Shown here in pieces: positions 2,365 through 34,089 of a DNA stretch of 35,972 nucleotides (positions within the stretch are counted from its first letter, which is position 1; every line of letters starts with the position of its first letter). Source of the stretch: a virus; the IMG/VR virus record IMGVR_UViG_3300045988_035186. The stretch is one strand, 5' to 3'. Under the pieces are notes generated by a model, which had not been told where the DNA came from, did not search any database, and saw only the letters and a program-made list of their open reading frames with translations. Position numbers and translations under genes: made by a program.

Positions 2365-3387
2365 TTATGTCAAAGTAATCTGCAGACCGTCAATCTTTGT
2401 GCCGATAACGCCTGCGTAGCCGTCCTGCTCGCTGTTTTTTTCGGTGTTGTGCTGCCAATCCCAAAAGCCTGCACCCTGCTTACGCACTCTGTATGTAGCC
2501 TTGAAGTCGCTCACGCCGCTAAACTCGACCTGTACGGCATCAATGACTTTGCCTTTAATGCCTGCATAACCATTGTCGCTATCGCTGATGTCATAGCCGT
2601 TTACCCACGGCAGCCAGTCACCATTAAGCAAGTGCACACGATAGCGAGTTTTACCTTTTGATACTTTAAGAGCAATAGCTGAAATAGCTTGTTTCTTTCG
2701 TCCTGCTACATTTGACAAGCCCTTGACCTCGCTGTACCACTTGCCGTCTGCAAAGACTCTATATGTCAGCGTTGGCTTTTTAACCTTTGTTTCAGATTTG
2801 CCGAAGATGTTATCGTTGTAAATTACATTAGTATCAATATTTCCGCCATAGCCGTTGATTTTGCCTGTCGAGCTGTTCTGCCAAATATCACAGTTTAATT
2901 CATTTACGGAGTTATATTGTGCAAGCCAAATACTGTATTTTCTCTTCAATTCATCATAATCAAGACAGTTGTTAAACCAATTCAGATTAGCGTATATACC
3001 TGCTCTGTAGTTACTTTTCTTGATAGTTTCGCAGAAGCGTTCTGCAATCGCTGTAAGTTTTGTTTTGCCGAGTTTAACCATTGAATAATCTTCCAAATCA
3101 TAATAAATTGGCATATCGAAATATTTATTTTCAACACACTCAAGGCAGGCTTTTGCTTCTTTTTCTGCATCATCGACACTATCAGCATAACTGTACCAAT
3201 AGGCACCGATTTTAAGTCCAGCCTCTTTAGCATTACGGTAATGACTTTCAAACATTGTGTCTTTTTGCGATGTTTCTCTGCCATAGCCAGCTCTGATTAT
3301 GACCGCTTTTATGCCGTCATTTTTCATTTTGTTGAAGTCGATATTTTGCTGAAATTCCGAAATATCAACGCAAGTAATTTTTGACAT
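2365..3387 (-). CDS. Endolysin: N-terminal GH25 muramidase plus three C-terminal ChW-like (clostridial hydrophobic-W) wall-binding repeats
   Basis: N-terminus VDISEFQQNIDFNKMKNDGIKAVIIRAGYG...YWYSYA...DLE is GH25-like. C-terminal repeats: YRVFADGKWYSEV..., YRVHLLNGDWLPWVNGYD...GYAGIKGKVIDAVQVEF, YRVRKQGAGFWDWQHN...GYAGVIGTKIDGLQITL. Confidence 0.8.
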   Translation of the reverse strand: MSKITCVDISEFQQNIDFNKMKNDGIKAVIIRAGYGRETSQKDTMFESHYRNAKEAGLKIGAYWYSYADSVDDAEKEAKACLECVENKYFDMPIYYDLEDYSMVKLGKTKLTAIAERFCETIKKSNYRAGIYANLNWFNNCLDYDELKRKYSIWLAQYNSVNELNCDIWQNSSTGKINGYGGNIDTNVIYNDNIFGKSETKVKKPTLTYRVFADGKWYSEVKGLSNVAGRKKQAISAIALKVSKGKTRYRVHLLNGDWLPWVNGYDISDSDNGYAGIKGKVIDAVQVEFSGVSDFKATYRVRKQGAGFWDWQHNTEKNSEQDGYAGVIGTKIDGLQITLT

Positions 3388-4411: not shown

Positions 4412-5704
4412 TTATTCCCCCTTTGCCTCTATGCTGTCTGTCAGAGCTTTAATTCCGCTCAGTGTACGGCTCAACACATAGGCTTTTACTTTCTCTTTTT
4501 TAGGTTGTCCTGCGTTATCATAGACAAAATCACCGTTTGAATCAGTAACATAGCTTTCAATTTCTAATCCGTCACCAATCTGCACCCAAGGCCTGCCGTC
4601 AAGAGTAGCTGCAAGCGGTGTGTACGAACAGTTATAAAAGCGCTCGCCTGTTTTTCCACTTATAAGATTTTGCACATTGTGAACTAAAGCACCGCCTGTG
4701 CCGTCATCTTTTTGCCAACAAACTACATTTTTTGTAAAATCATATGTTACAACATCCTCACCCCACTGTGATTCTGCAACGGTAGTTTTAGCTTTTCTGT
4801 CGGTGAACGAGTAACCGTACGAAAAATTAAAACTGTTATAACCTGTACAATCGTATTCCTCTCCGTAAAGATTTTCGTAAAAATCATACGTTTCTGTATT
4901 TTTGCCAAGTTCAATATATCTGAATACACCTTTACCTTTATTCGGCACAACAGCACCGAATAAACCGAGCATTTCACAACAATTTTTTAGTATCTCGCCG
5001 TATGTAATCGTGTCTGAATTTTCAAGCCACGCCTGATTATATGTCGGAAAATCACGCACGGTAAGCCCTGACTGTTGGTTTATTACTTCGTCGAGAATTT
5101 CTTTGTTATCCTCGACCTGAATCATATGCTTTCCGTTGTAGTTAAGGCATAGCACAACCAATTCGCCGATTTTATAGCCGTTTGGATAAGTTTTCCATAA
5201 ATTAAACAGCTTATTTGTTGCGTCAATATCATATAACATAGAGAGTGCGTCATAAGCGACAATGTGTCGCTTATTGCGGTTATTCTTGTCAAGCTTGGCA
5301 CTGTCAATAATACCGCTAAACAAATAATATTCCTTTGCAGCTACGGTTTCTCCCGGCAAAAGTGATGTACCTAAAAACAGCTTTGCAGATGGCAGCAGCT
5401 TTTCTCCGCTCGGAAAACGCTGCGTTAATTTTACACTTATCCATTTACCGACAAGGTCTGTTGTAAAAATTCTGTCGTCTGAATTTACAAGGTCAATATC
5501 AAATTCAGAAGCAATACAACCGCCGAATTTTAATTTACTTTCGTCACAAATTGACTGTGTAAGGCTCATACTTTCACTCGCTATATTTTTCTCTGTTATA
5601 TCCGGATATTCACCGTCGGGAAATGAGATTGTCAGTATATTTTCAATCAGATTTTCAATAGTCTGCTTTTTGTGCAGACTTGAAACTTCAAGCAAATTAA
5701 CCAC
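4412..5704 (-). CDS. Tail tip / Tal-like baseplate protein (assigned by position)
   Basis: 430 aa, directly downstream of the Dit-position gene. The true start may be the TTG at 5695 (RBS AGAGGTG). Confidence 0.4.
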   Translation of the reverse strand: MVNLLEVSSLHKKQTIENLIENILTISFPDGEYPDITEKNIASESMSLTQSICDESKLKFGGCIASEFDIDLVNSDDRIFTTDLVGKWISVKLTQRFPSGEKLLPSAKLFLGTSLLPGETVAAKEYYLFSGIIDSAKLDKNNRNKRHIVAYDALSMLYDIDATNKLFNLWKTYPNGYKIGELVVLCLNYNGKHMIQVEDNKEILDEVINQQSGLTVRDFPTYNQAWLENSDTITYGEILKNCCEMLGLFGAVVPNKGKGVFRYIELGKNTETYDFYENLYGEEYDCTGYNSFNFSYGYSFTDRKAKTTVAESQWGEDVVTYDFTKNVVCWQKDDGTGGALVHNVQNLISGKTGERFYNCSYTPLAATLDGRPWVQIGDGLEIESYVTDSNGDFVYDNAGQPKKEKVKAYVLSRTLSGIKALTDSIEAKGE

Positions 5705-15671: not shown

Positions 15672-15830
15672 TTAATCTGCTTTATTTTTGTTGTCTTCAA
15701 CCTCAATAACAAAACCTCTGTCAATAAGGCTTTTCGCTCGGTCTTTGGTACATTCAAAGACTTCATTGACAGGTCTGTTGATAAGACCGTTCATTTTATC
15801 GTTAAACGACACAACTACTTTTACTTTCAT
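15672..15830 (-). CDS. Small hypothetical protein (52 aa), below the ORF-track cutoff
   Basis: ATG at 15830 with RBS GAAAGGCGGTGA. MKVKVVVSFNDKMNGLINRPVNEVFECTKDRAKSLIDRGFVIEVEDNKNKAD. Bracketed by terminators. Confidence 0.5.
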   Translation of the reverse strand: MKVKVVVSFNDKMNGLINRPVNEVFECTKDRAKSLIDRGFVIEVEDNKNKAD

Positions 15831-15857
15831 TTTGTCACCGCCTTTCTGATTTTGGGT

Positions 15858-15892
15858 ATTAAAAAAGCACTCAATCTGATTGATTAAGTGCT
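15858..15892 (-). terminator. Strong intrinsic terminator (second of a tandem pair after MuF)
   Basis: Minus strand AGCACTTAAT-CAATCAG-ATTGAGTGCT (10 bp, one G-U pair) followed by TTTTTTAATA. Confidence 0.8.
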
Positions 15893-15912
15893 AATCTCTG
15901 TATTAAATTCAC

Positions 15913-15941
15913 GCATAACAAAACCGCCCACAAGGAGCGGT
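15913..15941 (-). terminator. Intrinsic terminator (first of the tandem pair after MuF)
   Basis: Minus strand ACCGCTC-CTTGT-GGGCGGT followed by TTTTGTTATG. The stem overlaps the stop codon of the acidic mini-ORF. Confidence 0.7.
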
Positions 15942-16087
15942 TAGTCTTCTTCCAAGTAGTCAAATTCACTCGACATTGAGCGTTCTTTTTCTTCGTCTGT
16001 TAATGTAGAAAGAAATTCTTCCATACATTTTATTTGCAATTCAATAGGTCCGTCGATAATTGCGTTTCTTGATTTATTTTCTTCCAC
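15941..16087 (-). CDS. Candidate acidic mini-ORF after the MuF C-terminal module (48 codons from GTG 16087, or 27 from ATG 16024)
   Basis: VEENKSRNAIIDGPIELQIKCMEEFLSTLTDEEKERSMSSEFDYLEED. It overlaps the MuF stop. Coding status is uncertain. Confidence 0.3.
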   Translation of the reverse strand: MEENKSRNAIIDGPIELQIKCMEEFLSTLTDEEKERSMSSEFDYLEED

Positions 16088-17912
16088 TCCAAATCACCCC
16101 AGCTTTTGATTTATTTAGCAAAGTTTTAACAAATCTATCTTTTTCCTCATCGGTTTCCTTAACCACTATCTTCTTATACAATCTATTACACTCAAGAGCA
16201 AATCTATTGTTGTCAAAATCATCGGTTTTAGTTAAATATTCAACTGTGCCGTTGTTTTTTACAATAGTAATTGTTCTAACATTTTTATTTGCAAATACAT
16301 CCAAATCGTTCATAGAATAACTACTGTTTCTCGGATGATTATGTAAAATAGTTAAATTTTTTCCTTTTGTCTCCAAGTATGTGCCAAAGTCAATTTTTTC
16401 ATCAGAACCTGTAAATGGTTTATAGTCAACCAATCCGTCGCGAAAAACAAATGCAACTTCTTTATTGTCATTTTGTTCTTTTGAAAATTTCAAAAGTTCC
16501 TTATGTTGTTTTTGAATTTCAACCCTTTGTTCTTCAGAATATCCGGCAATATCAACTTTCGGCACTCGCTCGATAGCTTTATCTGTTATTGGCGTAATAG
16601 GCTTTTTATTTTCCTCTTTTATTATACCACTACCGCCCGATTTTTCAACACCGAATTTACCTTTAAAGGTATGATTTTCTGTGTTTTTAATCGGCAAAGA
16701 AGTAGTTTTTATTCCGCCTATCGGTGAACTGGCTTTTTTAGGCTTTGTAATACCCTCAACGTTGCTGCCGCCAACCGTTACCCTGTCCCATTGTTGAGAA
16801 AGTCCGACGCTTTTTGAGAAGTTCACATATTCATCGGAAGTTTTTACATATCTTGCACGAGCGTTAATTATTGCTTGCTCGTCAGCCCCGCCTTCTTCAA
16901 GCAATTTTATTTTCTGCCTTTGTGCCCGCATTGTGGTTTCAAGTCTGCGCTGTCTTTGGGTTGCCTCGTACTTTGTGTATGTCTTGCCGTTGTATTCTAC
17001 AGGCTTGTTTTCCTCTGCGTTCATCTTGTCTAGCTGTTCATCTGTGTATGTGCGTGGAGTTATGCCGGGAGTGAAAGGCGAATATGAGTGATAGCAGTTT
17101 GCGCCGCAAAGTCCTGTTACCGTGCCAAGTCCGCACACGCTCTCGAGTTCTTCCTTACTGTACACTCTGCCTTGCCACACCTGATGGCTCGGCCTTGCTC
17201 CACTGTGCCACGATACCTCAAAGTAATTTGTGCCGAGTTTTTCGGCGTTTTCCTCATTGATTTTGCCCACAACCTGATTCAGTCCTGTTGACACCGCACG
17301 CCTTGCCGCAACGGTAACTCTATTGCTGTGACCGCTTGCATAGTCAACCGTACGCAATCCGCTGTTTGTCATTTCGGTTACGGTTTTTTCGAGTACGGTA
17401 TTATAATCACTCGCACCGCTTGCAATTTCCGTGACGGCTTTATCAAGTGTTTCTTGATAATAGTCTGCAACGGGAGTAAAGCCCAAACTGCCGTCAGGCT
17501 GTCGCTTTGCAAAGCCCATTGACTGTGTAATGTTTTTACATTCGTTTTGTGTCTGCTCTTGTACGGCCCTCACAAATTGCTGTAGTGGCTCGTTTTCTGA
17601 ATATGGTATAAACTCCTTGCCTTGTTCAATAAAAGCACTCTCCGCCTCGTTATATCCGCTTTCCGTTATATTTGTAAAGATGTTTTCAACTTCTTTATCG
17701 CTAAGGTTAAGTGTCCTTGCGACAATGTCTTTGATTCGCTTTTTGCTTGTACCTAAATCGTATAATCTGCTCATTTTATAGCCTGTTGACGGTATAATCT
17801 CCGCAGCTTCAAGTAACATTCTTACTATTTCCGTCATTATGCTCATTTGCAGGCTGTCAAAAATTTGCTCGAGTGCAATCGGGATTGCCTCTGTAACTTC
17901 GGGAGTAAACAT
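16074..17912 (-). CDS. Minor head protein, MuF/SPP1 gp7 family, with a C-terminal JAB/MPN (RadC-like) pattern module
   Basis: 612 aa. MuF signature EVSWHSGARPSHQVWQGRVYS...GLCGANCYHSY (aa about 230-280), a G/S/K-rich linker, then NKEVAFVF...LTILHNHPRNSSYSMNDLDVF (aa 483-540). Confidence 0.8.
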   Translation of the reverse strand: MFTPEVTEAIPIALEQIFDSLQMSIMTEIVRMLLEAAEIIPSTGYKMSRLYDLGTSKKRIKDIVARTLNLSDKEVENIFTNITESGYNEAESAFIEQGKEFIPYSENEPLQQFVRAVQEQTQNECKNITQSMGFAKRQPDGSLGFTPVADYYQETLDKAVTEIASGASDYNTVLEKTVTEMTNSGLRTVDYASGHSNRVTVAARRAVSTGLNQVVGKINEENAEKLGTNYFEVSWHSGARPSHQVWQGRVYSKEELESVCGLGTVTGLCGANCYHSYSPFTPGITPRTYTDEQLDKMNAEENKPVEYNGKTYTKYEATQRQRRLETTMRAQRQKIKLLEEGGADEQAIINARARYVKTSDEYVNFSKSVGLSQQWDRVTVGGSNVEGITKPKKASSPIGGIKTTSLPIKNTENHTFKGKFGVEKSGGSGIIKEENKKPITPITDKAIERVPKVDIAGYSEEQRVEIQKQHKELLKFSKEQNDNKEVAFVFRDGLVDYKPFTGSDEKIDFGTYLETKGKNLTILHNHPRNSSYSMNDLDVFANKNVRTITIVKNNGTVEYLTKTDDFDNNRFALECNRLYKKIVVKETDEEKDRFVKTLLNKSKAGVIWSGRK

Positions 17913-19237
17913 CAGTCAACAACCTCCGAGGACTGCGGCAGGTTCTTTTTTGCTGTCTTTTCGTCCTCTCCGTACCATTTCATACGATACTCATCAGGTC
18001 GCATAATTCCAAGACTCAAGTCCTGAATATCCTGTGTGCGTTCGGTCTGTTCATCTGTGAGAATACTGTCCTTAAAGTCACAAACGAATGTGTAACCGCT
18101 TGTTGTCAGCGAATTGTAAAAGGCGAGAGCATACACCAAATCGTCAAGACAATATTTAAGCTGTTTCTGAATTGCCGATACCGTGTTGTACTTTCGGTTC
18201 TTAGCCGATAATATCTCCGTAGCCGTCTTTGCGACAGTGTCGGGGTCGGATAGGTCACCATACGCAAGGCCGACCGAAAATTCAAGTCTGCGAAGATATG
18301 TATTTAGCCCGTCCGTAATATCAGATTGACGAATTGCAGGAGAAAAATCTTTGAACAATTCATTATCTCCGAGGTCAACATCTACAGCTTTGTAAAGTCT
18401 TTTGTTGAGTTTTTCAGTACCCTCTTTCTTGAAAGCTGCGGCATCAACATGTATTGCCCTTTCGCCGCTCTCAAACTCCCAATCAAGTCTGCCGAATTGT
18501 GTGTCTATTTTACGAATAAGATTTATGTCATTTGCGTAGACAGAAACACCGCAAGATGAGCCGTCAATCGTGTTTTTAATCGGTGTGCGAAAATAACCGA
18601 AAGCAGGGCGGAGCATTGCGGGGTATGTAACAGCATTCGGCAGGCTTGCCCACTCGTCAACTGCCGCAAGCGGAATTTCTCTTCCGAGTTGCCCCTCACT
18701 TGCAGACACATAAGCAGTGTTGGTAATTGTCAATCCCTTTTCGGTATCAAGGCTGTGATACTCAAGCCTTGTGTAATAGTTGTCGCCGATCTTCTTAAAT
18801 TCAGGAAAGATGACTTTTACAAGCCTATGCCTTGCGTCAAATTCAATCGGCACAAAGGCATTTGCGGAAATATACTGCACCTTGTCGCCGCCTAACGGTT
18901 TAATCACCATTGCGCCTGTTGCAAGGCCCGACTGCAATTCGGAGTTAAGGTCTTCCGTTGCGGTTTCAAAGATTTTCTGCAATTTGTCATTGCTTACGCT
19001 TGCGGTCATTTCGTTAAGCGTGATGTTTGCAAACTCTCTTGTAATCGCCTGCTCAAGCCTTAAACTTATAACGCTGTCGGAAAGCCAAAAAGCCTGCCCC
19101 GCAAAGCATTTCTGCCACATTTCAATGCTTTGCATCATATCATCTGTAATCGCAAGTTTAACGCCCAAAGCCTGTTTAATATCCTTTAGAGGGAACATTC
19201 TCTGCCACACTCCTTTCAAAAAATTTATGAATTGCAT
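17912..19237 (-). CDS. Portal protein (SPP1 gp6-like)
   Basis: 441 aa, located between TerL and MuF, with the typical size and order. Confidence 0.8.
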   Translation of the reverse strand: MQFINFLKGVWQRMFPLKDIKQALGVKLAITDDMMQSIEMWQKCFAGQAFWLSDSVISLRLEQAITREFANITLNEMTASVSNDKLQKIFETATEDLNSELQSGLATGAMVIKPLGGDKVQYISANAFVPIEFDARHRLVKVIFPEFKKIGDNYYTRLEYHSLDTEKGLTITNTAYVSASEGQLGREIPLAAVDEWASLPNAVTYPAMLRPAFGYFRTPIKNTIDGSSCGVSVYANDINLIRKIDTQFGRLDWEFESGERAIHVDAAAFKKEGTEKLNKRLYKAVDVDLGDNELFKDFSPAIRQSDITDGLNTYLRRLEFSVGLAYGDLSDPDTVAKTATEILSAKNRKYNTVSAIQKQLKYCLDDLVYALAFYNSLTTSGYTFVCDFKDSILTDEQTERTQDIQDLSLGIMRPDEYRMKWYGEDEKTAKKNLPQSSEVVD

Positions 19238-19238
19238 T

Positions 19239-20501
19239 TCACACCGCCCTTATAAATCTTTTTATATCCCGTTCAAATGTGTATTCAAAACTGTCGAGGC
19301 TGTCGATGTCGGTTGAACCGTCGTCAAGTCTTTCGTCAACAAGTTTTTTATCATTCCATACAGCCTCGCACAATGCCATTTTAAGCGTATCGCAGCCGTC
19401 AGTGTAAAAGAATCTGCCAGCGCCCATAAGTCGCAACAGGCATTGAATACGGTCCTGTACGGGGTATTTGCGTGCGGGTCTGACTATGGTATTCGGGAAA
19501 TGTTCTTCAAACGCTCGTTTAATGCCTCTGCCGAGCACGGTTTCGGCGTTATCCCAATACACAAAGTCAACAACACCGCACAAATCAAAAACAGACTGTG
19601 CAAAATTAATTGCCAGCCTGTCAATGTCGTTTCCGTCGTATTCACCGAAGTGTCGTTCGCTTTTCAACGCTATTAAATTATTGTAGCCTCTTGTCTTTGC
19701 CGTCGCCACAAATGCGTGGCCCGATTTATTGCCGCCAAAGTCAATGCCGATTGTCACTTCTTCAAGTTCCGACTTCAAAAACTGCCTGTACGGTAAATCC
19801 GTGTTGATTTTGTCGGTAATTTGACAGTAAAATTTTTTGGGATTATCGGCAAATCGGCGGTAAATAGCACCCTCGGCACGCACCCACTTGCCGAGAATAA
19901 GACGGTCATAGAAAATAGTGCCCTCATATTCATTGCAAAGGTTCTTCACAAACTCCTCGGATAAGAATTTATTATCGAAAATCGTGTATTCCTGCAAATA
20001 AATATCTGCGTCACTGTCAATGAATTTCTTGAGCCAATGAGTTGGGTGTTCAGGGTTTAAACTGCCGTCAAAGCACGAATAAGGCTTGTCAAGTCGGGAT
20101 TTAAGCATATTGAAAACATCTTCGTTCCACTTTGCAACCTCATCACCGTAAATATATTTTGCCGACGCACCCTGAATTTTAGCAACCTGACTGACCTTTT
20201 CCGCACCCAAACAATACACATCTTCACCGCACACTTTTGCAATGTTTCGGCTGTTAATCGTACCGACAACATCAGAGGTGTAACGCTCTCGCATAGGCTG
20301 CAGTACATTTCGCTCGATAGTTTCCTTTGACACTCCGATGATAAAGCACAAACCGTCTTTACCTATTCGCTCTCGAATACGCATAGGCACAATACAGGTG
20401 ACATCAACAAAACTTTTGCCCGAACGCACCGCACCGCTTTTAATGTTCCAGCGATGTGTTGCGTTTGCTATGTATTCCTTTTGCTTACTCGTGTACGGCA
20501 T
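19239..20501 (-). CDS. terL: Terminase large subunit (PBSX/Terminase_3-like)
   Basis: ORF 19239..20525. The best start is the ATG at 20501 (RBS AAAGGAG, 8-nt spacer). MPYTSKQKEYI...GAVRSGKSF (Walker A) plus a C-terminal nuclease-like half. Confidence 0.9.
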   Translation of the reverse strand: MPYTSKQKEYIANATHRWNIKSGAVRSGKSFVDVTCIVPMRIRERIGKDGLCFIIGVSKETIERNVLQPMRERYTSDVVGTINSRNIAKVCGEDVYCLGAEKVSQVAKIQGASAKYIYGDEVAKWNEDVFNMLKSRLDKPYSCFDGSLNPEHPTHWLKKFIDSDADIYLQEYTIFDNKFLSEEFVKNLCNEYEGTIFYDRLILGKWVRAEGAIYRRFADNPKKFYCQITDKINTDLPYRQFLKSELEEVTIGIDFGGNKSGHAFVATAKTRGYNNLIALKSERHFGEYDGNDIDRLAINFAQSVFDLCGVVDFVYWDNAETVLGRGIKRAFEEHFPNTIVRPARKYPVQDRIQCLLRLMGAGRFFYTDGCDTLKMALCEAVWNDKKLVDERLDDGSTDIDSLDSFEYTFERDIKRFIRAV

Positions 20502-20883
20502 TGTCTGTGCTCCTTTCTGCGTCATCTTTGATTTCTTTCAAAATGCTGTCGAGCTTGTCAAGTGCGGTCTTGTCGGTTTCCTCTTTTTGCTTATCCCGCC
20601 ACTTGTCGGGGCGGCGGTTTTTCAGCCAAAATATTTGTGCAGTAGTGTTGCCCTCAAGAGCAGAGGACAACAAAGCATTTTCAACTTCATAGTCCACAAC
20701 CTCTTTGCCTTTTTTTAGGGCAGCCAAAATAGCCGAATACTTATTTTTCCAATCTTTTAGCGTTGAGTATGAAACACCCATATTCTTAGCAATCTGCTCA
20801 TCGGTCAAGCCGTCCCTTGCCCAACCCTCAAGCAGTAATAAATTTTCTTCTTTAAGCCATTTTTCATACTTTCCTTTTGCCAC
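20485..20883 (-). CDS. terS: Terminase small subunit
   Basis: ORF 20485..20892. The likely start is the GTG at 20883 (RBS AGAGAGG). MAKGKYEKWLKEENLLLLEGWARDGLTDEQIAKNMGVSYSTLKDW has the typical HTH N-terminus. Confidence 0.85.
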   Translation of the reverse strand: MAKGKYEKWLKEENLLLLEGWARDGLTDEQIAKNMGVSYSTLKDWKNKYSAILAALKKGKEVVDYEVENALLSSALEGNTTAQIFWLKNRRPDKWRDKQKEETDKTALDKLDSILKEIKDDAERSTDNAVHE

Positions 20884-20908
20884 CGTCACCACCTCTCTTT
20901 ATGTAAAA

Positions 20909-28332: not shown

Positions 28333-29675
28333 GCTATCAATCCTCTCTTTCGTGCTTGATAATACGCCCAGCCGGGCTTATAGCCGTGTGTTTTTGCGTA
28401 AACAAGTAAATCGTTGTAGCTGCCGCAATCAGATGGTGAACTGAAATCGAGCTTAAAGCCCTCAACCTTTATAAGCTCTGCGGCAGTATCAAAATCAACC
28501 TTTCGTTCTGCTGTCGGAAATTCATATCCGCATCGAGGGCATACGGCTTTCTGCCCCGGTGGTGGTGCAGAGAATGTAAAAAAGCACTCGGGGCATTGCT
28601 TGACCTTTGTTGCCTGCTCGTCCTCAAGCTTTTTAACACTCTTTTTCTCTCGTTTTTCAAGTGACCACACTCTGTCATCGTCAGGCATTCCGTGTCTTGC
28701 ATAGTTGCCCACATGGTCAATGATTACCGCCCTTTTGTTCGGTCTGTATCGCATACATCGCATTGACTGCTGAATGTAAAGCGTAAGGCTGTGAGTAGGT
28801 CGGAGCAGAATTGTACATTCGCAGTCGGGCACATCAAAGCCCTCTGAAATCAAATCCACATTGCAAAGAATTGTAATTTTTCCGCTGCGAAACTCGTTTA
28901 TAATCTGTTCTCTTTGAGCTTTCGGGGTACTTCCGTCAATATGCCTTGCGGATATACCCGCTTCGCAAAATGCCTGTGCGGTTGCCATACTGTGTTTGAC
29001 AGTTGAACAATAGCACACCGCTTTTTTGCCGTCTGCAAGCTGTCTGTAATACTTGATTACATCTCCGAAAACTGTATTTTTAGTCATTGCTTTTTCTATC
29101 TCGGAGGCGACATATTCGCCCATTTTGGTGTGCAGTCCTGTAAGGTCGGCAACACTCGGAGCATAGTAATCATACGGGGCAAGGCAGTTATGCTCAATGA
29201 GCCACTTGGTACTTACTCCTACAATCAGCTTATCGTTGACATCACCCAAGCCGTCACCGTTTAGACGAATAGGTGTTGCGGTGACGCCAACCCTCGGAAC
29301 ATCTGAAAAATATTCATAAATGCGTTTGTAGCTTTGTGCAAGGCTGTGATGATTTTCGTCCGTAATGATTAACGCAGGCTTAGGAAGTTTTTTAAGCCTG
29401 CGTGTAAAGGTTTGTACCATACCAATCTGACATAAATCCATAAGCACACCCCAGCGGACAAAGGTTCTGAATATTTGATCAACAAGTTCTCTCCTGTGAA
29501 CAACGAACAGTACCCGTTTACCGTTCCAAGTTGTTCGTCTTGCAATTTCTGCGACAATGCAGGACTTTCCGCCACCGCACCCAAGGACAATGCAAGGAGC
29601 TTTGTAACCCTCTCGCCAAGCCTGTCTTACCTGTTCAACAAGGTCATTCTGATACGGTCGAAGCTGCATTAGCAT
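28329..29675 (-). CDS. SF2 DEAD/DEAH-box helicase with a C-terminal zinc ribbon
   Basis: 448 aa. LRPYQ, GCGGGKS (motif I), DENHH (motif II), TATP (motif III), C-terminal CPEC...CPRC. Confidence 0.85.
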   Translation of the reverse strand: MLMQLRPYQNDLVEQVRQAWREGYKAPCIVLGCGGGKSCIVAEIARRTTWNGKRVLFVVHRRELVDQIFRTFVRWGVLMDLCQIGMVQTFTRRLKKLPKPALIITDENHHSLAQSYKRIYEYFSDVPRVGVTATPIRLNGDGLGDVNDKLIVGVSTKWLIEHNCLAPYDYYAPSVADLTGLHTKMGEYVASEIEKAMTKNTVFGDVIKYYRQLADGKKAVCYCSTVKHSMATAQAFCEAGISARHIDGSTPKAQREQIINEFRSGKITILCNVDLISEGFDVPDCECTILLRPTHSLTLYIQQSMRCMRYRPNKRAVIIDHVGNYARHGMPDDDRVWSLEKREKKSVKKLEDEQATKVKQCPECFFTFSAPPPGQKAVCPRCGYEFPTAERKVDFDTAAELIKVEGFKLDFSSPSDCGSYNDLLVYAKTHGYKPGWAYYQARKRGLIA

Positions 29676-30537
29676 TCACTTCCTGTTCTTTTCGATATCT
29701 GATTTGAGTGCACCCCATACAGAGTGCTGTGCCGTATCTTCCTGTTGACTTTTCGATAATCTGCTCAGCCGTCAACTTACCGCTTGCAACAATAACCTTA
29801 TTGCAGTCGGCACATCTCGGCAAATCCGCACCCTTTGAGAGCCATTCTCCCAACTGTTTTCCGAGTTCCGGAGTGACAACACCTGACCAATCATCAAGAA
29901 ATGTAGTATCTTTAGAAAGTGATGCACAATGTGAACGGTCAAGCTGAAAGCACATATCAAATTCGTATTCCGTATTATCACGCTGAACCGGTGCAAGTCC
30001 AATTTTTACAGGTACAGTTTTGCCCCTGTCATTTACCTCCATAGCATAAGCCATTTTTGCACGCATTGTAATAATTGTGTGACAGTCAACGGATAGGATT
30101 GTATTTACAAGATTATTCTGTATCTTACCTGCTTCGTCCCACGCTGTGTAATCATTTTTGCCACGCTGTTGAGCAATATGTGACTTTATATCAAGCACAC
30201 CACCCTCGTTATCCCAACAGTGAGAAAAGCTGTCAACAATCACTACACCGTCAGTACCTACAATTTCAGCAGCAGATTTAACATAATCTATGTACTTATC
30301 GGGAGAATAAGGCGGAGTCATTGATGCATATTTGAATGTACCTGTTTTAAGGTCTGTTCTGTCTGCATAAAAGCGACCTCTTTCATGTTCGGTGTCAATC
30401 AAAGCAACCTTTGTCCAATCACCGGTAATGCCATAAGCAAGATACAGACTTGATAAGGTTTTACCGCTGCCTGATGGACCCGTAATAGCTATCCTTGCCT
30501 TTGATTTTGCTCTTTTTACATCATCAAAATTAATCAT
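29644..30537 (-). CDS. AAA_24 / Sak4-like RecA-fold ATPase with a C-terminal Cys4 extension
   Basis: 297 aa. ARIAITGPSGSGKT (Walker A), VVIVDS (Walker B), C-terminal CADC...CMGC. Confidence 0.75.
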   Translation of the reverse strand: MINFDDVKRAKSKARIAITGPSGSGKTLSSLYLAYGITGDWTKVALIDTEHERGRFYADRTDLKTGTFKYASMTPPYSPDKYIDYVKSAAEIVGTDGVVIVDSFSHCWDNEGGVLDIKSHIAQQRGKNDYTAWDEAGKIQNNLVNTILSVDCHTIITMRAKMAYAMEVNDRGKTVPVKIGLAPVQRDNTEYEFDMCFQLDRSHCASLSKDTTFLDDWSGVVTPELGKQLGEWLSKGADLPRCADCNKVIVASGKLTAEQIIEKSTGRYGTALCMGCTQIRYRKEQEVNANAASTVSE

Positions 30538-31152: not shown

Positions 31153-32133
31153 TTAAAGATTTATGTTTTGTGTGGCAAGTGCTTCTATTAAATGTTCAAC
31201 CTTGCCCTTGAAAAATTCCTTGTCCTGTGACTGCTTGGCGAAATCGAGCATACGGATAAAGCTGTCATATGCAATCGAAAAATACGCCTTAAAGACATCC
31301 TTGTCATCTGATGTACCGTCGGCAGTCTGAACATTTTTCAGCCTTTCTTCATACTCCTCTTTCTGTCTGCGAAGAGCCTCTTGCTTTTCGTCCTCAAGCT
31401 GTTTCCTTACGATTTTTTCGTTCTCACGATATTCTGCTTCGAGTTCGTCATTGCGTTTGATGTTCTCACGCTCAAGTGCTCTGATGGTTTCGTTCAGTCT
31501 GCGCTCATTATCGCTCGGCTCTGCAACGGCAACCTCAATAGGGCGGCTTTCAAGCTCCTGAACTTTATTCGTCAGCTTGAAATTTTTGTTCTTTTCCTCT
31601 GCAAGCTGATTTTCAATATTGCGATAGCTTTCTTTTGAAGTGTCCGCCTGCTGCTTGTAATAGTCTGCGTCTTTCTTAGCGTTATTGAGCTGTCTGCAAT
31701 AGTCAATGCTCTTGTCGGTTGCCTCCTGTTTTTCAGCTTTAAGGCTGTCAATTTCTGCTTTTAACTGCTTAACCGTTGTGCTCTCAAGGTCGAGCTTTTC
31801 AGCAATTTCAGCCTGTTCGGGTTCGCTTATGGTAGCAAGGAGCATTAATTTTGATTTACTAAAATGTCCCAACGTTGGGACATTTTCTTTGCTTATTTTT
31901 TCTGCAATAGAAATATATCTATAAGCATTACTGCGTTTCATTCCTACTTCATTCTCGCAGTACTCCTCAAAATTCGTGTAGCCAAGCTCCTTATACAGCT
32001 TGTTGTCACGCATAGTCTTGAGTCCGTTGCACATATCCCATATGTTCTGTTGTGCAAGGTTTGCGCTGACAAGAATTTTCTGATGCAGTTCAATGGCCTG
32101 CTTATGCTGTTTGCTTACTGTTATTTCTGACAT
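31153..32133 (-). CDS. DNA-binding-like protein (DUF3102/ParB-like N-terminal fold?) with a long coiled coil
   Basis: 326 aa. ...NIWDMCNGLKTMRDNKLYKELGYTNFEEYCENEVGMKRSNAYRYISIAEK..., then about 200 aa of E/K-rich coiled coil. Confidence 0.35.
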   Translation of the reverse strand: MSEITVSKQHKQAIELHQKILVSANLAQQNIWDMCNGLKTMRDNKLYKELGYTNFEEYCENEVGMKRSNAYRYISIAEKISKENVPTLGHFSKSKLMLLATISEPEQAEIAEKLDLESTTVKQLKAEIDSLKAEKQEATDKSIDYCRQLNNAKKDADYYKQQADTSKESYRNIENQLAEEKNKNFKLTNKVQELESRPIEVAVAEPSDNERRLNETIRALERENIKRNDELEAEYRENEKIVRKQLEDEKQEALRRQKEEYEERLKNVQTADGTSDDKDVFKAYFSIAYDSFIRMLDFAKQSQDKEFFKGKVEHLIEALATQNINL

Positions 32134-33640
32134 TTTTTATATCCTCCAAAAATTCAGCGTATTGCTTTTCAAATTTCTTGATTTCATCCGGCTTTTTAAA
32201 TCCGCTGTCACGCTCATTTTTGTAACCGTGGCACTGCATTATTTCCAATGTTTCGGGATTTACTTCAATCGTAAAAAACGGGATTTTCGGTTTATCTTTA
32301 TGACGAATAAAAAGTATTATCGTGTCACCTCTTGCGTGCCGTCTTACATATCCGCCGACGCAATGCTGTAATATTCTTCCCTCTGCTATTATTTCTTCAC
32401 CGCTTTTTGGGGCAAGCATTATAAGGCTGTCTGTGCTCATCAGTAATGGGGTAAGTGTCTTTGCTATTTTTGCAATCTGCTTCGATTCTGTTTTGTCTGC
32501 ATAGAAAGCAACCTTTTCAAGCGTTCTGTCGTGAGCCTCTTCGAGATGAGCCGGCATTACTTCTTCTATACCTTCGGGAAGCTTTTTGCAGCTATCAAGA
32601 TAATCCCTCCACAGTATTACTCTCCGATCGTTTTTGCCATACTTCAAAATCTGTTTGTATGTAAGACTATTTTTGTGAAGTTCGTTTACAGCATTGATGC
32701 CGAGCTTTGACAGCTTGCTTATGAACTCATGTGCCATATGAATAGTCGGTTCTTCCTTTATTACGCTACGGTAAAGTTCAATTGTCCTTGAATCATAATC
32801 TGCGAAAAAGTGCATATCCTCCTTATGACATCCGAGCATTTTAAGAAGATTGGTTTCTTTCCAGTGAATTTTATTGAGCGAAAGTTTGCCGTTAATCAAA
32901 AGCTTTGCAACATTCTCAAAACCGCCTTTAATCAGATATTCTGCATTATTGTGCCTTACATATATGTTCAGCCATTTGAGAATCTCTTGGACCGTACATC
33001 TATTTAAAAGCTCATCCGCACACGAATATCTAAGATCCGTATCAGCTATTACATCAAGATTTAAAAGTACGGTTGAATCCCAGCCTGAATACAAGGTTTT
33101 TTCTGACGGACCCCAATACCACGCTAAGCCCTGTGAAGCAGAAGGAATAATTCCGTCTGTTTTCATCTGATAAAATGATTTGCCGTACCAGTTGTATGCA
33201 AATCTTTGCATTGCGTGTTGTTCATATACATACAGATATTCATTTGAAAAAAAATATTGCGGCATCATTTCGACAGGATTTTCGTTGTAAATATCTTCCG
33301 AAAATCTCTGATAAACCGTTACAAATCTGATGTACAGTCTGCCGTTTTGAGCAAAACAAAATCCAAACTTGCGACTTCTTCCAAGTTTCTTTCTGCCGTA
33401 ATGCAAAGCCTTTGCTTTGACGGTCTCACCACAATGGTTGCATATGTGAATTTGATTATGTGCAAGACTGAACGGCTCATTAAGATGCCAGCAACGACAG
33501 CTTGTACAAAAGCAATCACATCTGTCCCTGCCTTTATTTTCATAAAAGGCATACTGTGGGAAATACTGCACTATTTGCTCTTCGTTTTCAACTGTAATAT
33601 CAGGAATATTCTCGAGCAGATATTCGGGATTTTTAATCAT
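32102..33640 (-). CDS. PcfJ-like protein
   Basis: ORF 32102..33655. The likely start is the ATG at 33640 (RBS TAGGTG). Cys-rich zinc ribbon near the N-terminus, and C-terminal EGRILQHCVGGYVRRHARGDTIILFIRHKD, which I recognise as the PcfJ-domain core motif. Confidence 0.5.
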   Translation of the reverse strand: MIKNPEYLLENIPDITVENEEQIVQYFPQYAFYENKGRDRCDCFCTSCRCWHLNEPFSLAHNQIHICNHCGETVKAKALHYGRKKLGRSRKFGFCFAQNGRLYIRFVTVYQRFSEDIYNENPVEMMPQYFFSNEYLYVYEQHAMQRFAYNWYGKSFYQMKTDGIIPSASQGLAWYWGPSEKTLYSGWDSTVLLNLDVIADTDLRYSCADELLNRCTVQEILKWLNIYVRHNNAEYLIKGGFENVAKLLINGKLSLNKIHWKETNLLKMLGCHKEDMHFFADYDSRTIELYRSVIKEEPTIHMAHEFISKLSKLGINAVNELHKNSLTYKQILKYGKNDRRVILWRDYLDSCKKLPEGIEEVMPAHLEEAHDRTLEKVAFYADKTESKQIAKIAKTLTPLLMSTDSLIMLAPKSGEEIIAEGRILQHCVGGYVRRHARGDTIILFIRHKDKPKIPFFTIEVNPETLEIMQCHGYKNERDSGFKKPDEIKKFEKQYAEFLEDIKNVRNNSKQTA

Positions 33641-33648
33641 ACCGACAC

Positions 33649-34089
33649 CTACCAATCTATAAGATTGCCGAGGTCAAGAGTAACCGGATCCGTTTTCTGC
33701 TCTGCTACATCAGGCTCTTCAAGCTCATACTCGGACATATGTATCTGCATTGCGAAAGTAACCTTTGCTCCGGGGAAAATCTTACCGACAATCTGCTGAT
33801 ACACATCAAGGTCGGAAACTGCAGCGGGGAGCTTCTTTCCCACTTCGTCAATCAGGTTTTCAAGGTTTTCTGCAGCCGTAACGGCTCTTGCAAATTCCTC
33901 GTTCTGCTCTGAAAATTCGCAGAGCATTTTCTTTACCGGCTCAAGAATTGCTTTAGATTTACGGTCTTTAAGATTTTTTTCGTTGCACAACTTGATTTTT
34001 TTTGTTGCAGAGGATATAATTGAATTAGGCTTATTGTTCTTTGTGCTTGTGGCATTCGCGGTGTCACAGGCACTTTTTTTATTGCTCAT
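33649..34089 (-). CDS. PcfK-like protein (family that includes AcrIIA9-type Cas9 inhibitors) - tentative
   Basis: 146 aa, directly upstream of and overlapping the PcfJ-like gene (the pCF10 pcfJ/pcfK pairing). The helical core EEFARAV...SDLDVYQQIV and an acidic tail fit the family pattern only loosely. Confidence 0.35.
   Translation of the reverse strand: MSNKKSACDTANATSTKNNKPNSIISSATKKIKLCNEKNLKDRKSKAILEPVKKMLCEFSEQNEEFARAVTAAENLENLIDEVGKKLPAAVSDLDVYQQIVGKIFPGAKVTFAMQIHMSEYELEEPDVAEQKTDPVTLDLGNLIDW

Follow-up and report, generated by a model that had tools for sequence, protein, structure and literature searches.

A phage MuF2 head protein with an exchangeable, JAB/MPN-like C-terminal domain and a small acidic partner: a predicted toxin/effector-immunity cassette

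Is the C-terminal region of a 612-residue phage head protein a structural extension of that protein or a separate domain with a function of its own, and what is the small acidic gene that overlaps its end? The question arises from the virus record IMGVR_UViG_3300045988_035186, of which the whole 35,972-nucleotide stretch was analyzed (the window). An earlier note on this DNA, made from the letters alone, had framed the gene as a MuF carrier with a C-terminal toxin/effector cassette, and the tail polymorphism and orphan arrays described below agree with that framing. We conclude that the gene probably encodes a MuF-type polymorphic toxin/effector with an exchangeable JAB-fold C-terminal domain. 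A swappable domain of this predicted fold, carried on a tether and accompanied by a constant acidic partner, points to a new cassette of the MuF polymorphic toxin type, and we propose it as a predicted toxin/effector-immunity family, new and widespread, within the MuF polymorphic toxins. The features of the locus are collected in Table 1.

Table 1. Features of the MuF gene, its C-terminal module and the adjoining partner gene (positions in the window)
Feature	Position	Strand	Basis
MuF2 / Phage_min_cap2 domain, putative head-internal carrier, aa 3-365	16818..17906	-	Pfam PF06152, E=1.5e-101
Predicted disordered G/S/K/P-rich tether, aa 385-435	16608..16760	-	AlphaFold, pLDDT <50 at aa 385-388 and 391-435
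SGIIKE junction motif, aa 428-433, start of variable C-terminal domain	16614..16631	-	positional motif count
Predicted JAB/MPN-fold C-terminal module, aa 435-612	16077..16610	-	AlphaFold, Foldseek, hhalign
N481-x-x-x-E485 (NxxxE)	16458..16472	-	N47 and E51 (module numbering) conserved in 121/121
H524-N-H526-P-R-N-S-S-Y-S533-M-N-D536, putative metal-site motif	16305..16343	-	conservation and model
Module stop codon	16074-16076	-	
Shine-Dalgarno-like GGGGTGA before the mini-ORF GTG, inside the end of the module gene	16094..16100	-	sequence reading
48-codon acidic partner gene, candidate inhibitor/immunity protein	15941..16087	-	net charge -10, pI 4.1
Two tandem intrinsic-terminator-like hairpins, 15942-15922 and 15892-15866	15866..15942	-	terminator scan
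Exchangeable cassette: distal linker, module, mini-ORF, terminators	15848..16730	-	DNA homology breakpoints

The gene occupies positions 16074..17912 of the minus strand. Its product contains both EVSWHSGARPSHQVWQGRVYS and GLCGANCYHSY, the two signatures by which the earlier note had recognized a MuF/SPP1-gp7-type protein. The Pfam family of the MuF part is PF06152 (Phage_min_cap2), not PF04233 itself, and PF06152 is the MuF2 family of the MuF polymorphic toxins (Jamet 2017, PMC5576092). In PHROGs, the protein matches phrog_581, a minor head protein. The gene belongs to the head-morphogenesis block: upstream, the portal ORF (17912..19237) directly adjoins it and a terminase ORF is also found, and the scaffold gene lies on its other side. 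No integrase or recombinase was detected within the window, and no genes for a Ubl partner or for E1/E2 were found near the module, whose neighborhood is one of head morphogenesis.

The disordered tether and the pTM of 0.44 in the full-length AlphaFold model suggest two independent domains. The G/S/K/P-rich linker that had been noted after the MuF part is predicted to be disordered over about 50 residues, and the SGIIKE motif lies near its end. An SGII-type motif occurs at this junction in 86 of 196 family members, compared with 3.3% of control windows. It also precedes the PBECR2, MPTase4 and sister-JAB tails of related proteins and the tails of an orphan array (L111), and the DUF6883 tail shows a relaxed form only, KGDIIR.

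The module beyond the tether is distinct, as the earlier note had claimed, but its size was underestimated at about 160 residues: the globular part comprises about 178 and includes an N-terminal helical part. The proposed JAMM-type pattern of E485, H524, H526, S533 and D536 is present in full and conserved in 120 or 121 of 121 homologues. In module numbering (add 434 for the residue number in the 612-residue protein), N47, E51, N91, H92, S99 and D102 are found in all 121 and H90 in 120, at a mean column identity of 27%. Judged from these sequences, the conservation of the predicted E/HxH/S/D site is far beyond chance. The invariant N481 adds an element (NxxxE) to the pattern first described. 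The observation that the spacer is one residue short also held: H-x-H and S are always separated by 6 residues in the module family, against 7 in 111 of 111 RadC sequences, and the family departs from the canonical JAMM spacing H-x-H-x(7)-S-x-x-D. The module of the window is mildly basic (pI 9.1); other modules are acidic, with pI values down to 5.2.

AlphaFold modeled the module alone with a pLDDT of 95.5 and a pTM of 0.90. In this model the HxH motif ends strand 86-92, S99 is found just before helix 100-106 and D102 within it, as in JAMM enzymes. E51 is placed just before strand 52-56 and is aligned with the RadC Glu by hhalign. The earlier note had proposed Foldseek and AlphaFold as a check, and the top PDB matches of the model are all JAMM/MPN proteins: PfJAMM1 (5ld9 and 5lda, probability 1.00 and 0.99) and RadC (2qlc, 0.85), followed by weaker matches to AF2198 and Rpn11 (0.2-0.4). 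The fold similarity is moderate only, with a best E of 5.8e-3 and TM values of 0.40/0.53. Local hhalign against a shallow RadC profile (Neff 3.4) gave a probability of 82% (E=1.1e-5, 71 columns); E, HNH, S and D are in register, and one gap of one residue falls in the spacer. In global mode the same comparison gave 3%, and the module profile aligned with the single YicR sequence at 8%, over the HNHP segment only. The models place the module in the JAB/MPN fold class, and it is likely a divergent member of the JAB/MPN+ (JAMM, deaminase-like fold) superfamily, closest to the RadC and Tox-JAB clades by motif and profile.

Pfam, NCBIfam and PADLOC gave no match for either the module or the mini-ORF. 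Pfam RadC (PF04002) left the module of the window unmatched at E≤10. In a permissive Pfam scan of the 121 members, RadC appeared below threshold in 2 (best E=0.07), no JAB model was significant, and Toxin-JAB1 was not among the 25 families listed. The defence-system JAB models of PADLOC did not match the module at E≤1, and PHROGs returned weak matches of unknown function only. PDB sequence searches with the module, and with the profile built from 121 sequences, returned nothing above noise (Colicin D, E=0.78; a flagellar protein, 0.26), and of the PDB comparisons the fold search alone was informative. A tail-component protein is among the BFVD matches of the module.

The strongly acidic 48-codon ORF described by the earlier note does exist. 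It starts with GTG and overlaps the module stop by 14 nt. Its Shine-Dalgarno-like site has counterparts in nearly all homologous loci, where GGAGG-, GGAGT- or GGGGT-like sites are found 8-12 nt 5' of the mini-ORF start. The mini-ORF is present in 128 of 135 module loci, and its HMM gave exactly one match per locus in 173 loci, always adjoining the module. The same HMM had no match in loci with other tails, and no immunity-only orphan mini-ORF was found in the sampled flanks. The partners are cytoplasmic-type, acidic and 28-60 residues long across loci, and share the motif h-[LIV]-D-G-[ST]-x-E-E, in which the Asp is at least 90% conserved. Their mean net charge is -6.9 (-10 in the window copy), several 34-aa-type partners have only -1 to -3, and module and partner charges show no correlation. 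The mini-ORF is retained down to about 35% module identity, and the identities of module and partner co-vary (rho 0.43). No promoter independent of the late operon was found for it, the sole sigma-70-like match lying inside the ORF. The mini-ORF is a conserved, strictly co-occurring and translationally coupled partner, as had been supposed, which fits an inhibitor or immunity role.

The module was also said to be more AT-rich than the MuF part, and its GC content is indeed 0.313, the MuF core having 0.451 and the window as a whole 0.409; it falls in the lowest 1.3% of same-size windows. We mapped the limits of the cassette by blastn against variants whose MuF cores are 88-100% identical. With three such variants, homology ends at 16731 (L142), 16615 (L171) and 16639 (L177) and starts again at 15847, 15895 and 15847, respectively. 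The two tandem terminators reported after the mini-ORF were recovered by a terminator scan (3 observed versus 0.5 expected).

MuF cores that are 88-100% identical to that of the window carry a PBECR2 tail with DUF6275 downstream, a DUF6883 tail with a 63-aa ORF, or a sister JAB tail with a 64-aa ORF. At least four different tails occur on such cores, and a fifth, Tox-MPTase4 with a 92-aa ORF, on a core of 63% identity; each alternative tail has a different small downstream ORF. Cores of 50% identity have no C-terminal extension. The flanks of the swapped-tail phages share 84-96% DNA identity, with homologous portal, scaffold and capsid genes. The module itself is found on carriers of PF04233 (30 proteins), PF06152 (18), VG15 (6) and portal-fusion type (2). 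The comparison of MuF homologues that the earlier note had put forward as a swap test shows a conserved core, a boundary and an exchanged C-terminal region. The module is a discrete, horizontally exchanged domain and not a universal MuF extension.

At E≤1e-3, the module family comprises 1245 cluster representatives, the majority from the phages and prophages of Ruminococcus, Oscillospiraceae and Lachnospiraceae of the gut and rumen. Homologous cassettes are also found on bacterial genome contigs and prophage remnants; among 50,697 deposited phage genomes, tblastn found no match. The first homologue search returned proteins of at most 311 aa only, owing to search and fragment bias; a mostly standalone module was rejected, as viral contigs and an exhaustive search show many MuF fusions of 560-630 aa. 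Orphans do occur: of 36 short module ORFs, about 25 lack an upstream MuF and retain both the intact motif and the partner. Of two orphan contexts inspected in detail, one adjoins replication genes and the other is a decayed prophage remnant. At the L111 locus, three cassettes form an orphan array in which MuF-tail handles recur; its two flanking tails have no Pfam assignment.

These features resemble those of the MuF polymorphic toxins (PMC5576092; for the MuF phage-capsid-like system, PMC3482391), with the MuF N-domain right after the portal gene, a conserved carrier with a variable C-terminal domain, a small ORF directly downstream, known toxin domains among the alternative tails (PBECR2, Tox-MPTase4) and Bacillota hosts. 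The differences lie in the partner, which is unusually small (28-60 aa) and encoded by an overlapping gene, and in the lack of a detectable integrase in this window, the MuF toxins being those of temperate phages. The toxin domains listed by PMC5576092 in its text and in the searched portion of its supplement do not include the present one. No MuF-JAB fusion is found there either, in line with the remark of the earlier note that it knew of no characterized one. Orphan cassettes and the three-cassette orphan array are not mentioned in PMC5576092.

With respect to the JAB domains, the module shares with RadC (PF04002; PDB 2qlc; E. coli YicR and YeeS) the H-N-H-P core, the upstream Glu, the downstream S-x-x-D and the predicted fold class (Foldseek probability 0.85). 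RadC JABs are also found in mobile-element effector proteins, and their occurrence in polyvalent proteins delivered by phages or plasmids was previously predicted (Iyer et al. 2017, PMC5512222). Unlike RadC, the module has a spacer of 6 rather than 7, no match to the Pfam RadC HMM and no HhH N-domain; it has the invariant Asn of NxxxE, a conserved N-terminal helical extension, two C-terminal helices and a dedicated acidic partner. The previously predicted toxin domains Tox-JAB-1 (Toxin-JAB1) and Tox-JAB-2 (DUF4329) likewise place a JAB fold at the C-terminal toxin position and are followed by a partner of their own, and the NxxxE, HxH, S, D signature of the module is the one published for Tox-JAB-1 (PMC3482391). 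Tox-JAB-1 is known only from Bacteroidetes, on RHS carriers and with the lipoprotein Imm65, and Tox-JAB-2 pairs with Imm-NTF2 (PMC3482391). In contrast, the module has a MuF carrier in Bacillota phages, a 28-60 aa acidic partner and no Pfam match to either family, a comparison drawn from the published signature and the Pfam HMMs only. The JAMM/MPN+ isopeptidases (PfJAMM1, AfJAMM, Rpn11, CSN5, CBASS Cap3, Bil DUBs) provide the best structural matches, and in the model E/HxH/S/D fall on equivalent secondary-structure elements. The module differs from the classical members by its sequence (15-19% identity, TM 0.40/0.53 for the best match), its spacer, one residue shorter, and the lack of a Ubl partner or E1/E2 nearby.

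Several other readings of the locus were weighed. The missing curated family match and the non-canonical spacer would suit a chance motif in a structural extension, with no enzyme and with a mini-ORF that is not a gene. This reading is effectively refuted by the invariance of the motif in 121 homologues at 27% mean column identity, by the high-confidence JAB-like fold model and by the linked mini-ORF, which is kept to about 35% module identity with its Shine-Dalgarno site and conserved motif; we give it next to no credence. It is also very unlikely that the domain is a morphogenetic or self-processing peptidase (acting on MuF, scaffold or capsid, or in self-release) with the mini-protein as assembly cofactor. 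The gene does have the portal and scaffold genes as neighbors, a separate prohead protease is not apparent, JAB domains are known in phage tail-assembly proteins and one tail-component protein appears among the BFVD matches. However, 88-100% identical MuF cores carry unrelated tails (PBECR2, DUF6883) and the 50% relatives have no extension, indicating that the module is dispensable for assembly. Intact module and partner pairs, moreover, persist without MuF upstream, and the module is found on four different carrier families.

Two further readings concern the substrate. The JAB-fold domain could be a metal-dependent nuclease or nucleotide-processing toxin, with the acidic partner as a nucleic-acid mimic inhibitor, which we consider unlikely. 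The profile similarity to RadC and the identical Tox-JAB-1 signature argue for it, both families being predicted nucleases (PMC3482391, PMC5512222). BECR-type RNases (PBECR2) and DUF6883 are among the alternative tails of the slot, and the strongly acidic partner (mean -6.9, window -10) is matched with a module that is mildly basic in the window (pI 9.1). Yet some modules are acidic (pI down to 5.2), module and partner charges are uncorrelated, and several 34-aa-type partners have a net charge of only -1 to -3. To our knowledge, nuclease activity has yet to be demonstrated for any JAB fold; a 2025 review gives the activity of RadC as unknown and lists only metalloproteases as its structural neighbors. 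Alternatively, as the earlier note had suggested, an injected JAB isopeptidase could strip the ubiquitin-like or cGAS-type conjugates of host Bil-type or CBASS Cap2-type systems in the newly infected cell, with the mini-protein as a pseudosubstrate. In its favor, the closest structures are those of JAMM proteases specific for Ubl (PfJAMM1 with and without SAMP2, Rpn11), co-delivery with the DNA would place the enzyme in the cell before the defence acts (the MuF/polyvalent-protein logic, PMC5512222), and the h-h-D-G segment of the partner is loosely like a Ubl C-terminal tail. In detail, a 34-50-residue pseudosubstrate would hold its conserved h-h-Asp-Gly segment in the Ubl-tail groove and metal site until delivery, a proposal to which we assign a low probability. 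The isopeptidase reading as a whole appears improbable: PADLOC defence-system JAB models and Pfam JAB models do not match, and near-identical phages have predicted toxins of nuclease and metallopeptidase type in the same slot. The presence of a dedicated putative inhibitor gene and of chromosomal orphan cassettes suits a toxin better than a benign deconjugase, and toxin and RadC JABs have been argued to be without the Ubl-tail groove (PMC3482391, PMC5512222). If true, the module would be the first injected enzyme to counter ubiquitin-like defences and to come with its own safety catch.

For the polymorphic toxin/effector that we favor, the following mechanism can be outlined. The MuF2 N-terminal domain would serve as a head-internal, portal-associated carrier with which the protein may be packaged and injected, and the tether of about 50 residues ending in SGIIKE would present the exchangeable enzyme domain. 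H524, H526 and D536 are predicted to bind the catalytic metal, probably Zn2+. E485, the presumed general base, may act with N481 and S533 in water activation and transition-state stabilization. As a hydrolase, possibly a peptidase, the domain would cleave a cytoplasmic target in the recipient cell, be it a peptide or isopeptide or a nucleic acid or nucleotide, and is predicted to be toxic. The overlapping, coupled ORF would be produced in equal amounts with the enzyme. Its product, as an immunity protein or antitoxin, most likely keeps the enzyme of a producer cell or lysogen inactive by binding to it, and the conserved Asp-Gly segment of the partner may occupy the active-site groove. The partner might just as well serve as an activator, chaperone or substrate. 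Module, partner and terminators would move as a single cassette via recombination at the linker.

We know of no demonstrated activity for any toxin-type or RadC-type JAB domain, and the question of whether these domains are peptidases or nucleases has stood since 2012 or earlier. With its small size, high-confidence model, complete and invariant predicted metal site and partner of 34-50 residues, the module offers a tractable system for this question. Should the partner prove to be an inhibitor, few known immunity proteins would be smaller. With 1,245 cluster representatives this is a large family, absent from Pfam, NCBIfam, PADLOC and the 50,697 deposited phage genomes searched. Finally, the orphans, the three-cassette array and the SGII motif indicate that MuF toxins diversify as CDI, Rhs and MafB toxins do, by exchange of cassettes through handles, a route not described in PMC5576092.

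The features described in the earlier note, namely the ORF, its AT-rich module, a 48-codon ORF and two hairpins, were all found in the window. Residues 3-365 of the 612-aa protein match PF06152 (Phage_min_cap2; Pfam, E=1.5e-101), the 'MuF2' member of the MuF superfamily (Jamet et al. 2017, PMC5576092), and the scaffold and major capsid genes lie downstream. In the full-length AlphaFold model (pTM 0.44), a folded MuF domain is joined by a tether, with pLDDT below 50 at aa 385-388 and 391-435, to an independent module at pLDDT 90-97. We refer to aa 435-612 as the module and number its residues separately (module position plus 434 gives the full protein).

The window corresponds to roughly one siphovirus genome of ~36 kb. 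Its recognised genes, for primase, helicase, SSB, Gam, methyltransferase, terminase, portal, MuF-JAB, scaffold, capsid, tape measure and lysis, lie almost all on the minus strand. MuF toxins have been reported almost solely from temperate phages. No integrase or recombinase was detected in this apparently complete genome, so the temperate status of the window phage is unproven. The window also encodes a PcfJ-like protein (32102..33655), an AAA_24 protein and, adjoining the terminase gene, a small HTH protein (regions for the last two: 29644-30537 and 20485-20892).

Features of the MuF-JAB locus and of relatives' loci used for comparison
Feature	Position	Strand	Remarks
Terminase ORF	19239..20525		upstream of MuF-JAB gene
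Portal ORF	17912..19237		directly upstream of MuF-JAB gene
MuF-JAB ORF	16074..17912	-	612 aa
SGIIKE junction motif	16614-16631		aa 428-433, ahead of variable C-terminal domain
48-codon mini-ORF	15941..16087	-	net charge -10, pI 4.1
Two terminator-like hairpins	15942-15922, 15892-15866		after mini-ORF; scan found 3 vs 0.5 expected
52-aa ORF, phrog_2616	15672-15830	-	function unknown; MKVKVVVSFNDKMNG...; between cassette and scaffold gene
Sister JAB-like tail	L171:~4800-5348 (also L174, L182, L183)		core 88-89% identical; 64-aa ORF, then YjcQ gene
Three-cassette orphan array	L111:98-3388 (IMGVR_UViG_3300010163_002189)		ORFs 98-1039, 1337-2266, 2442-3146

The module was modelled with high confidence (AlphaFold2, 121-sequence alignment; mean pLDDT 95.5, pTM 0.90). 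E51 lies directly ahead of strand 52-56, strand 86-92 ends in H-N-H, and helix 100-106 carries D102, with S99 just before it, the same placement of these residues on the secondary structure as in JAMM enzymes. The best PDB matches found by Foldseek were all JAB/MPN proteins, led by P. furiosus JAMM1 (5ld9 and 5lda, prob 1.00 and 0.99, E=5.8e-3, TM 0.40/0.53) and including RadC (2qlc, prob 0.85) and, more weakly, AF2198 (1oi0/1r5x) and Rpn11 (prob 0.2-0.4); these moderate scores establish the fold class, not close kinship. In a viral structure library, the module resembled the C-terminal parts of many 520-633-aa 'minor capsid proteins' at only 16-22% identity, and it matched standalone proteins as well.

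A local profile-profile comparison of 227 module sequences with 95 RadC sequences, gathered from an E. coli YicR search, aligned 71 columns (hhalign, 82% probability, E=1.1e-5), pairing E51, H90/H92, S99 and D102 with the RadC E, HNH, S and D across a single 1-residue gap in the spacer. Neither Pfam (E<=10) nor PADLOC returned a match for the window module, and NCBIfam returned no relevant one; a permissive Pfam scan of 121 members gave only sub-threshold matches to Prok-JAB (5 members, best E=0.036) and RadC (2 members, best E=0.07). The invariant residues of the module equal the published signature of Tox-JAB-1 (NxxxE, HxH, S, D; PMC3482391). Tox-JAB-1 is found on RHS carriers in Bacteroidetes with the immunity protein Imm65, all different from those seen here, and its HMM does not match the module. 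On these grounds we class the module as a new JAB-superfamily family whose nearest clades are RadC and Tox-JAB.

A homologue search with aa 435-612 found 194 relatives. In the 121-sequence alignment, where mean column identity is 27%, N47, E51, N91, H92, S99 and D102 are conserved in 121/121 sequences and H90 in 120, conservation that at the sequence level indicates strong selection on the motif. The H-x-H to S-x-x-D spacer measures 6 residues across the family vs 7 in 111/111 RadC sequences, and what the earlier note had seen as a spacer one residue short is thus a fixed trait. In two loci (L010 and L029), the catalytic Asp is replaced by Asn (HNHPRNSGFSTSN, HNHPRNSSYSFNN) with the mini-ORF still adjoining the module; such modules may have lost activity, or the substitution may be tolerated. 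Searched exhaustively with the profile, 1.84 billion cluster representatives yielded 1,245 matches at E<=1e-3 (621 at E<=1e-10), and in the best 150 of the 1,245 the module sits at, or a few residues from, the C-terminus. The homologue search with aa 435-612, which was word-indexed, retrieved only matches of up to 311 aa, many beginning within the MuF tail. Full-length fusions of 560-630 aa are abundant among viral contigs and exhaustive-search matches, and the short matches are a mixture of true orphans, that is, modules without MuF upstream, and contig-edge or internal-start fragments.

The module is a discrete, mobile domain. N-terminal carriers in 67 long members include PF04233 (30), PF06152 (18), VG15 (PF25310; 6) and portal fusions (2). 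It is also C-terminal in far larger proteins (P0161, 1136 aa; P0190, 835 aa; and others in alignment A3), among them portal fusions, VG15-domain proteins, one that adds a PBECR3 nuclease domain and one that contains an intein-splicing domain, architectures that resemble polyvalent proteins.

Exchange of the tail on a conserved MuF core, which the earlier note had proposed as a check, was borne out by a set of 57 viral loci with relatives of core aa 1-380. Cores 88-100% identical to that of the window carry the window-type JAB, a second JAB variant (63-69% identical), a PBECR2 nuclease domain (E=3.3e-18) ahead of a DUF6275 gene, a DUF6883 domain with an overlapping 63-aa ORF after it, or a sister JAB-like tail (THNHPNGTVFSPED) that likewise has a spacer of 6 residues (hhalign against the module, 77%), with an overlapping but unrelated ORF after it. 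In L142, a PBECR2 tail follows a core 100% identical to that of the window. At 63% core identity a Tox-MPTase4-like tail with a 92-aa ORF is found, and at 50% the extension is wholly absent. Two linker types pair freely with either JAB variant.

Aligned with its variants, the window loses DNA homology within the linker, at 16731, 16615 or 16639, and regains it past the terminators at 15847-15895. These breakpoints define the exchangeable unit, or cassette, as the distal linker, module, mini-ORF and terminators. The 52-aa phrog_2616 ORF is retained in every C-terminal variant examined (L142, L171, L177, L189) and thus belongs to the constant head module, outside the cassette. Recombination also occurs inside the domain, as indicated by the homologue P0003, whose module joins an N-terminal half matching the P0004 type exactly with a C-terminal half matching the window type exactly (alignment A1). 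GC content, 0.45-0.53 across the MuF part, drops to 0.27-0.31 at 16100-16500; the module DNA (16077..16610) has a GC of 0.313 vs 0.409 for the whole window, placing it among the lowest 1.3% of windows of that size, and of all 534-nt windows the one beginning at 16001 is the lowest. Exchange of the cassette as a recombined unit accounts for this step.

The junction itself is marked by SGII(K/E/Q), present before nearly all tail types (window, L142, L171, L189, L111), with only a relaxed form, KGDIIR, before the DUF6883 tail (L177). The motif occurs in 86/196 family members vs 3.3% of control windows. In CDI and Rhs toxins, VENN-type demarcation motifs are similar to it; SGII(K/E/Q) could serve as a handle for recombination or mark where the protein is processed.

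The mini-ORF is a genuine and obligate partner of the module. An ORF of 28-70 aa, with its start sought from ~45 nt before to 15 nt after the module stop codon, is present in 128/135 module-bearing loci; most start 8-23 nt upstream of the stop, and a GGAGG-, GGAGT- or GGGGT-like Shine-Dalgarno sequence lies 8-12 nt before the start. The partners share an N-terminal motif, hydrophobic-[LIV]-D-G-[ST]-x-E-E, in which the Asp is the sole position conserved at >=90%, followed by at least three tail types. Partners are acidic, with a mean net charge of -6.9, and modules mildly basic, with a mean pI of 8.45 (9.1 for that of the window). Identity among modules varies together with identity among partners (Spearman 0.43, n=2,628 pairs). 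A partner HMM gave exactly one match per locus in 173 loci, always adjoining the module, and zero matches in loci with other tails.

Thirty-six loci have a short module ORF of only 120-320 aa; about 25 of them have no recognisable MuF upstream, and the remainder retain the MuF tail alone. Two orphans, P0004, which adjoins replication genes in a chromosomal context, and P0055, in a decayed prophage remnant flanked by DUF188 and YjcQ/scaffold genes, both keep the motif intact, together with a partner ORF. In the array at L111, all three ORFs open with one shared MuF-tail handle (NCYHDFHPFIPGISERTY...SGIIK) and diverge into a HEYYGH metallopeptidase-like domain, the JAB module (middle) and a His-rich domain; a small ORF of its own comes after each of the three, and Pfam matches neither flanking domain. 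Orphan cassettes in polymorphic toxin loci are classically organised in this way. Orphans and recombination are not mentioned by Jamet et al. 2017 (PMC5576092). Cassettes related to that of the window also occur on contigs of bacterial genomes, with named hosts mostly Ruminococcus, Oscillospiraceae, Lachnospiraceae and other Clostridia. Outside gut and rumen Clostridia, full-length MuF-JAB with a mini-ORF was seen in a Paenibacillus oceani isolate (L048) and a MAG labelled Rhodospirillales (L037), the latter alphaproteobacterial label possibly a binning error.

The best-supported reading, which we regard as probable, is that MuF-JAB and its mini-ORF form a MuF polymorphic toxin/effector. Through its MuF domain the protein would come to lie in the capsid, its tethered JAB-fold hydrolase would enter the cell together with the phage DNA, and the co-translated acidic mini-protein would silence the hydrolase in the producing or lysogenic cell. 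We infer metal binding, catalysis, toxicity, inhibition, packaging and injection from the logic of polymorphic toxins, MuF and polyvalent proteins (PMC3482391, PMC5576092, PMC5512222). A role of the module as a morphogenetic protease is contradicted by its free exchange or absence in otherwise near-identical head-gene sets. Action against Bil/CBASS defences, as proposed in the earlier note, seems improbable, no finding of the present analysis speaking in its favour. The structural neighbours of the module are Ubl isopeptidases; nuclease activity has been argued for JABs of the RadC and toxin types, and RadC activity is still given as unknown in a 2025 review. Because the partner is acidic and nuclease-type tails occupy the same slot, we lean slightly towards a nucleic acid or nucleotide as the target.

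Systems of this kind, in which an immunity gene lies downstream of a MuF polymorphic toxin, are already known, and JAB-fold toxin domains were predicted earlier; specialists will find no surprise here. New are a large JAB family with a 6-residue spacer that is absent from curated libraries, a very small acidic partner family, and orphan arrays and a junction motif in MuF toxins. The module provides a clean, abundant model for studying the role of toxin-type and RadC-type JAB domains.
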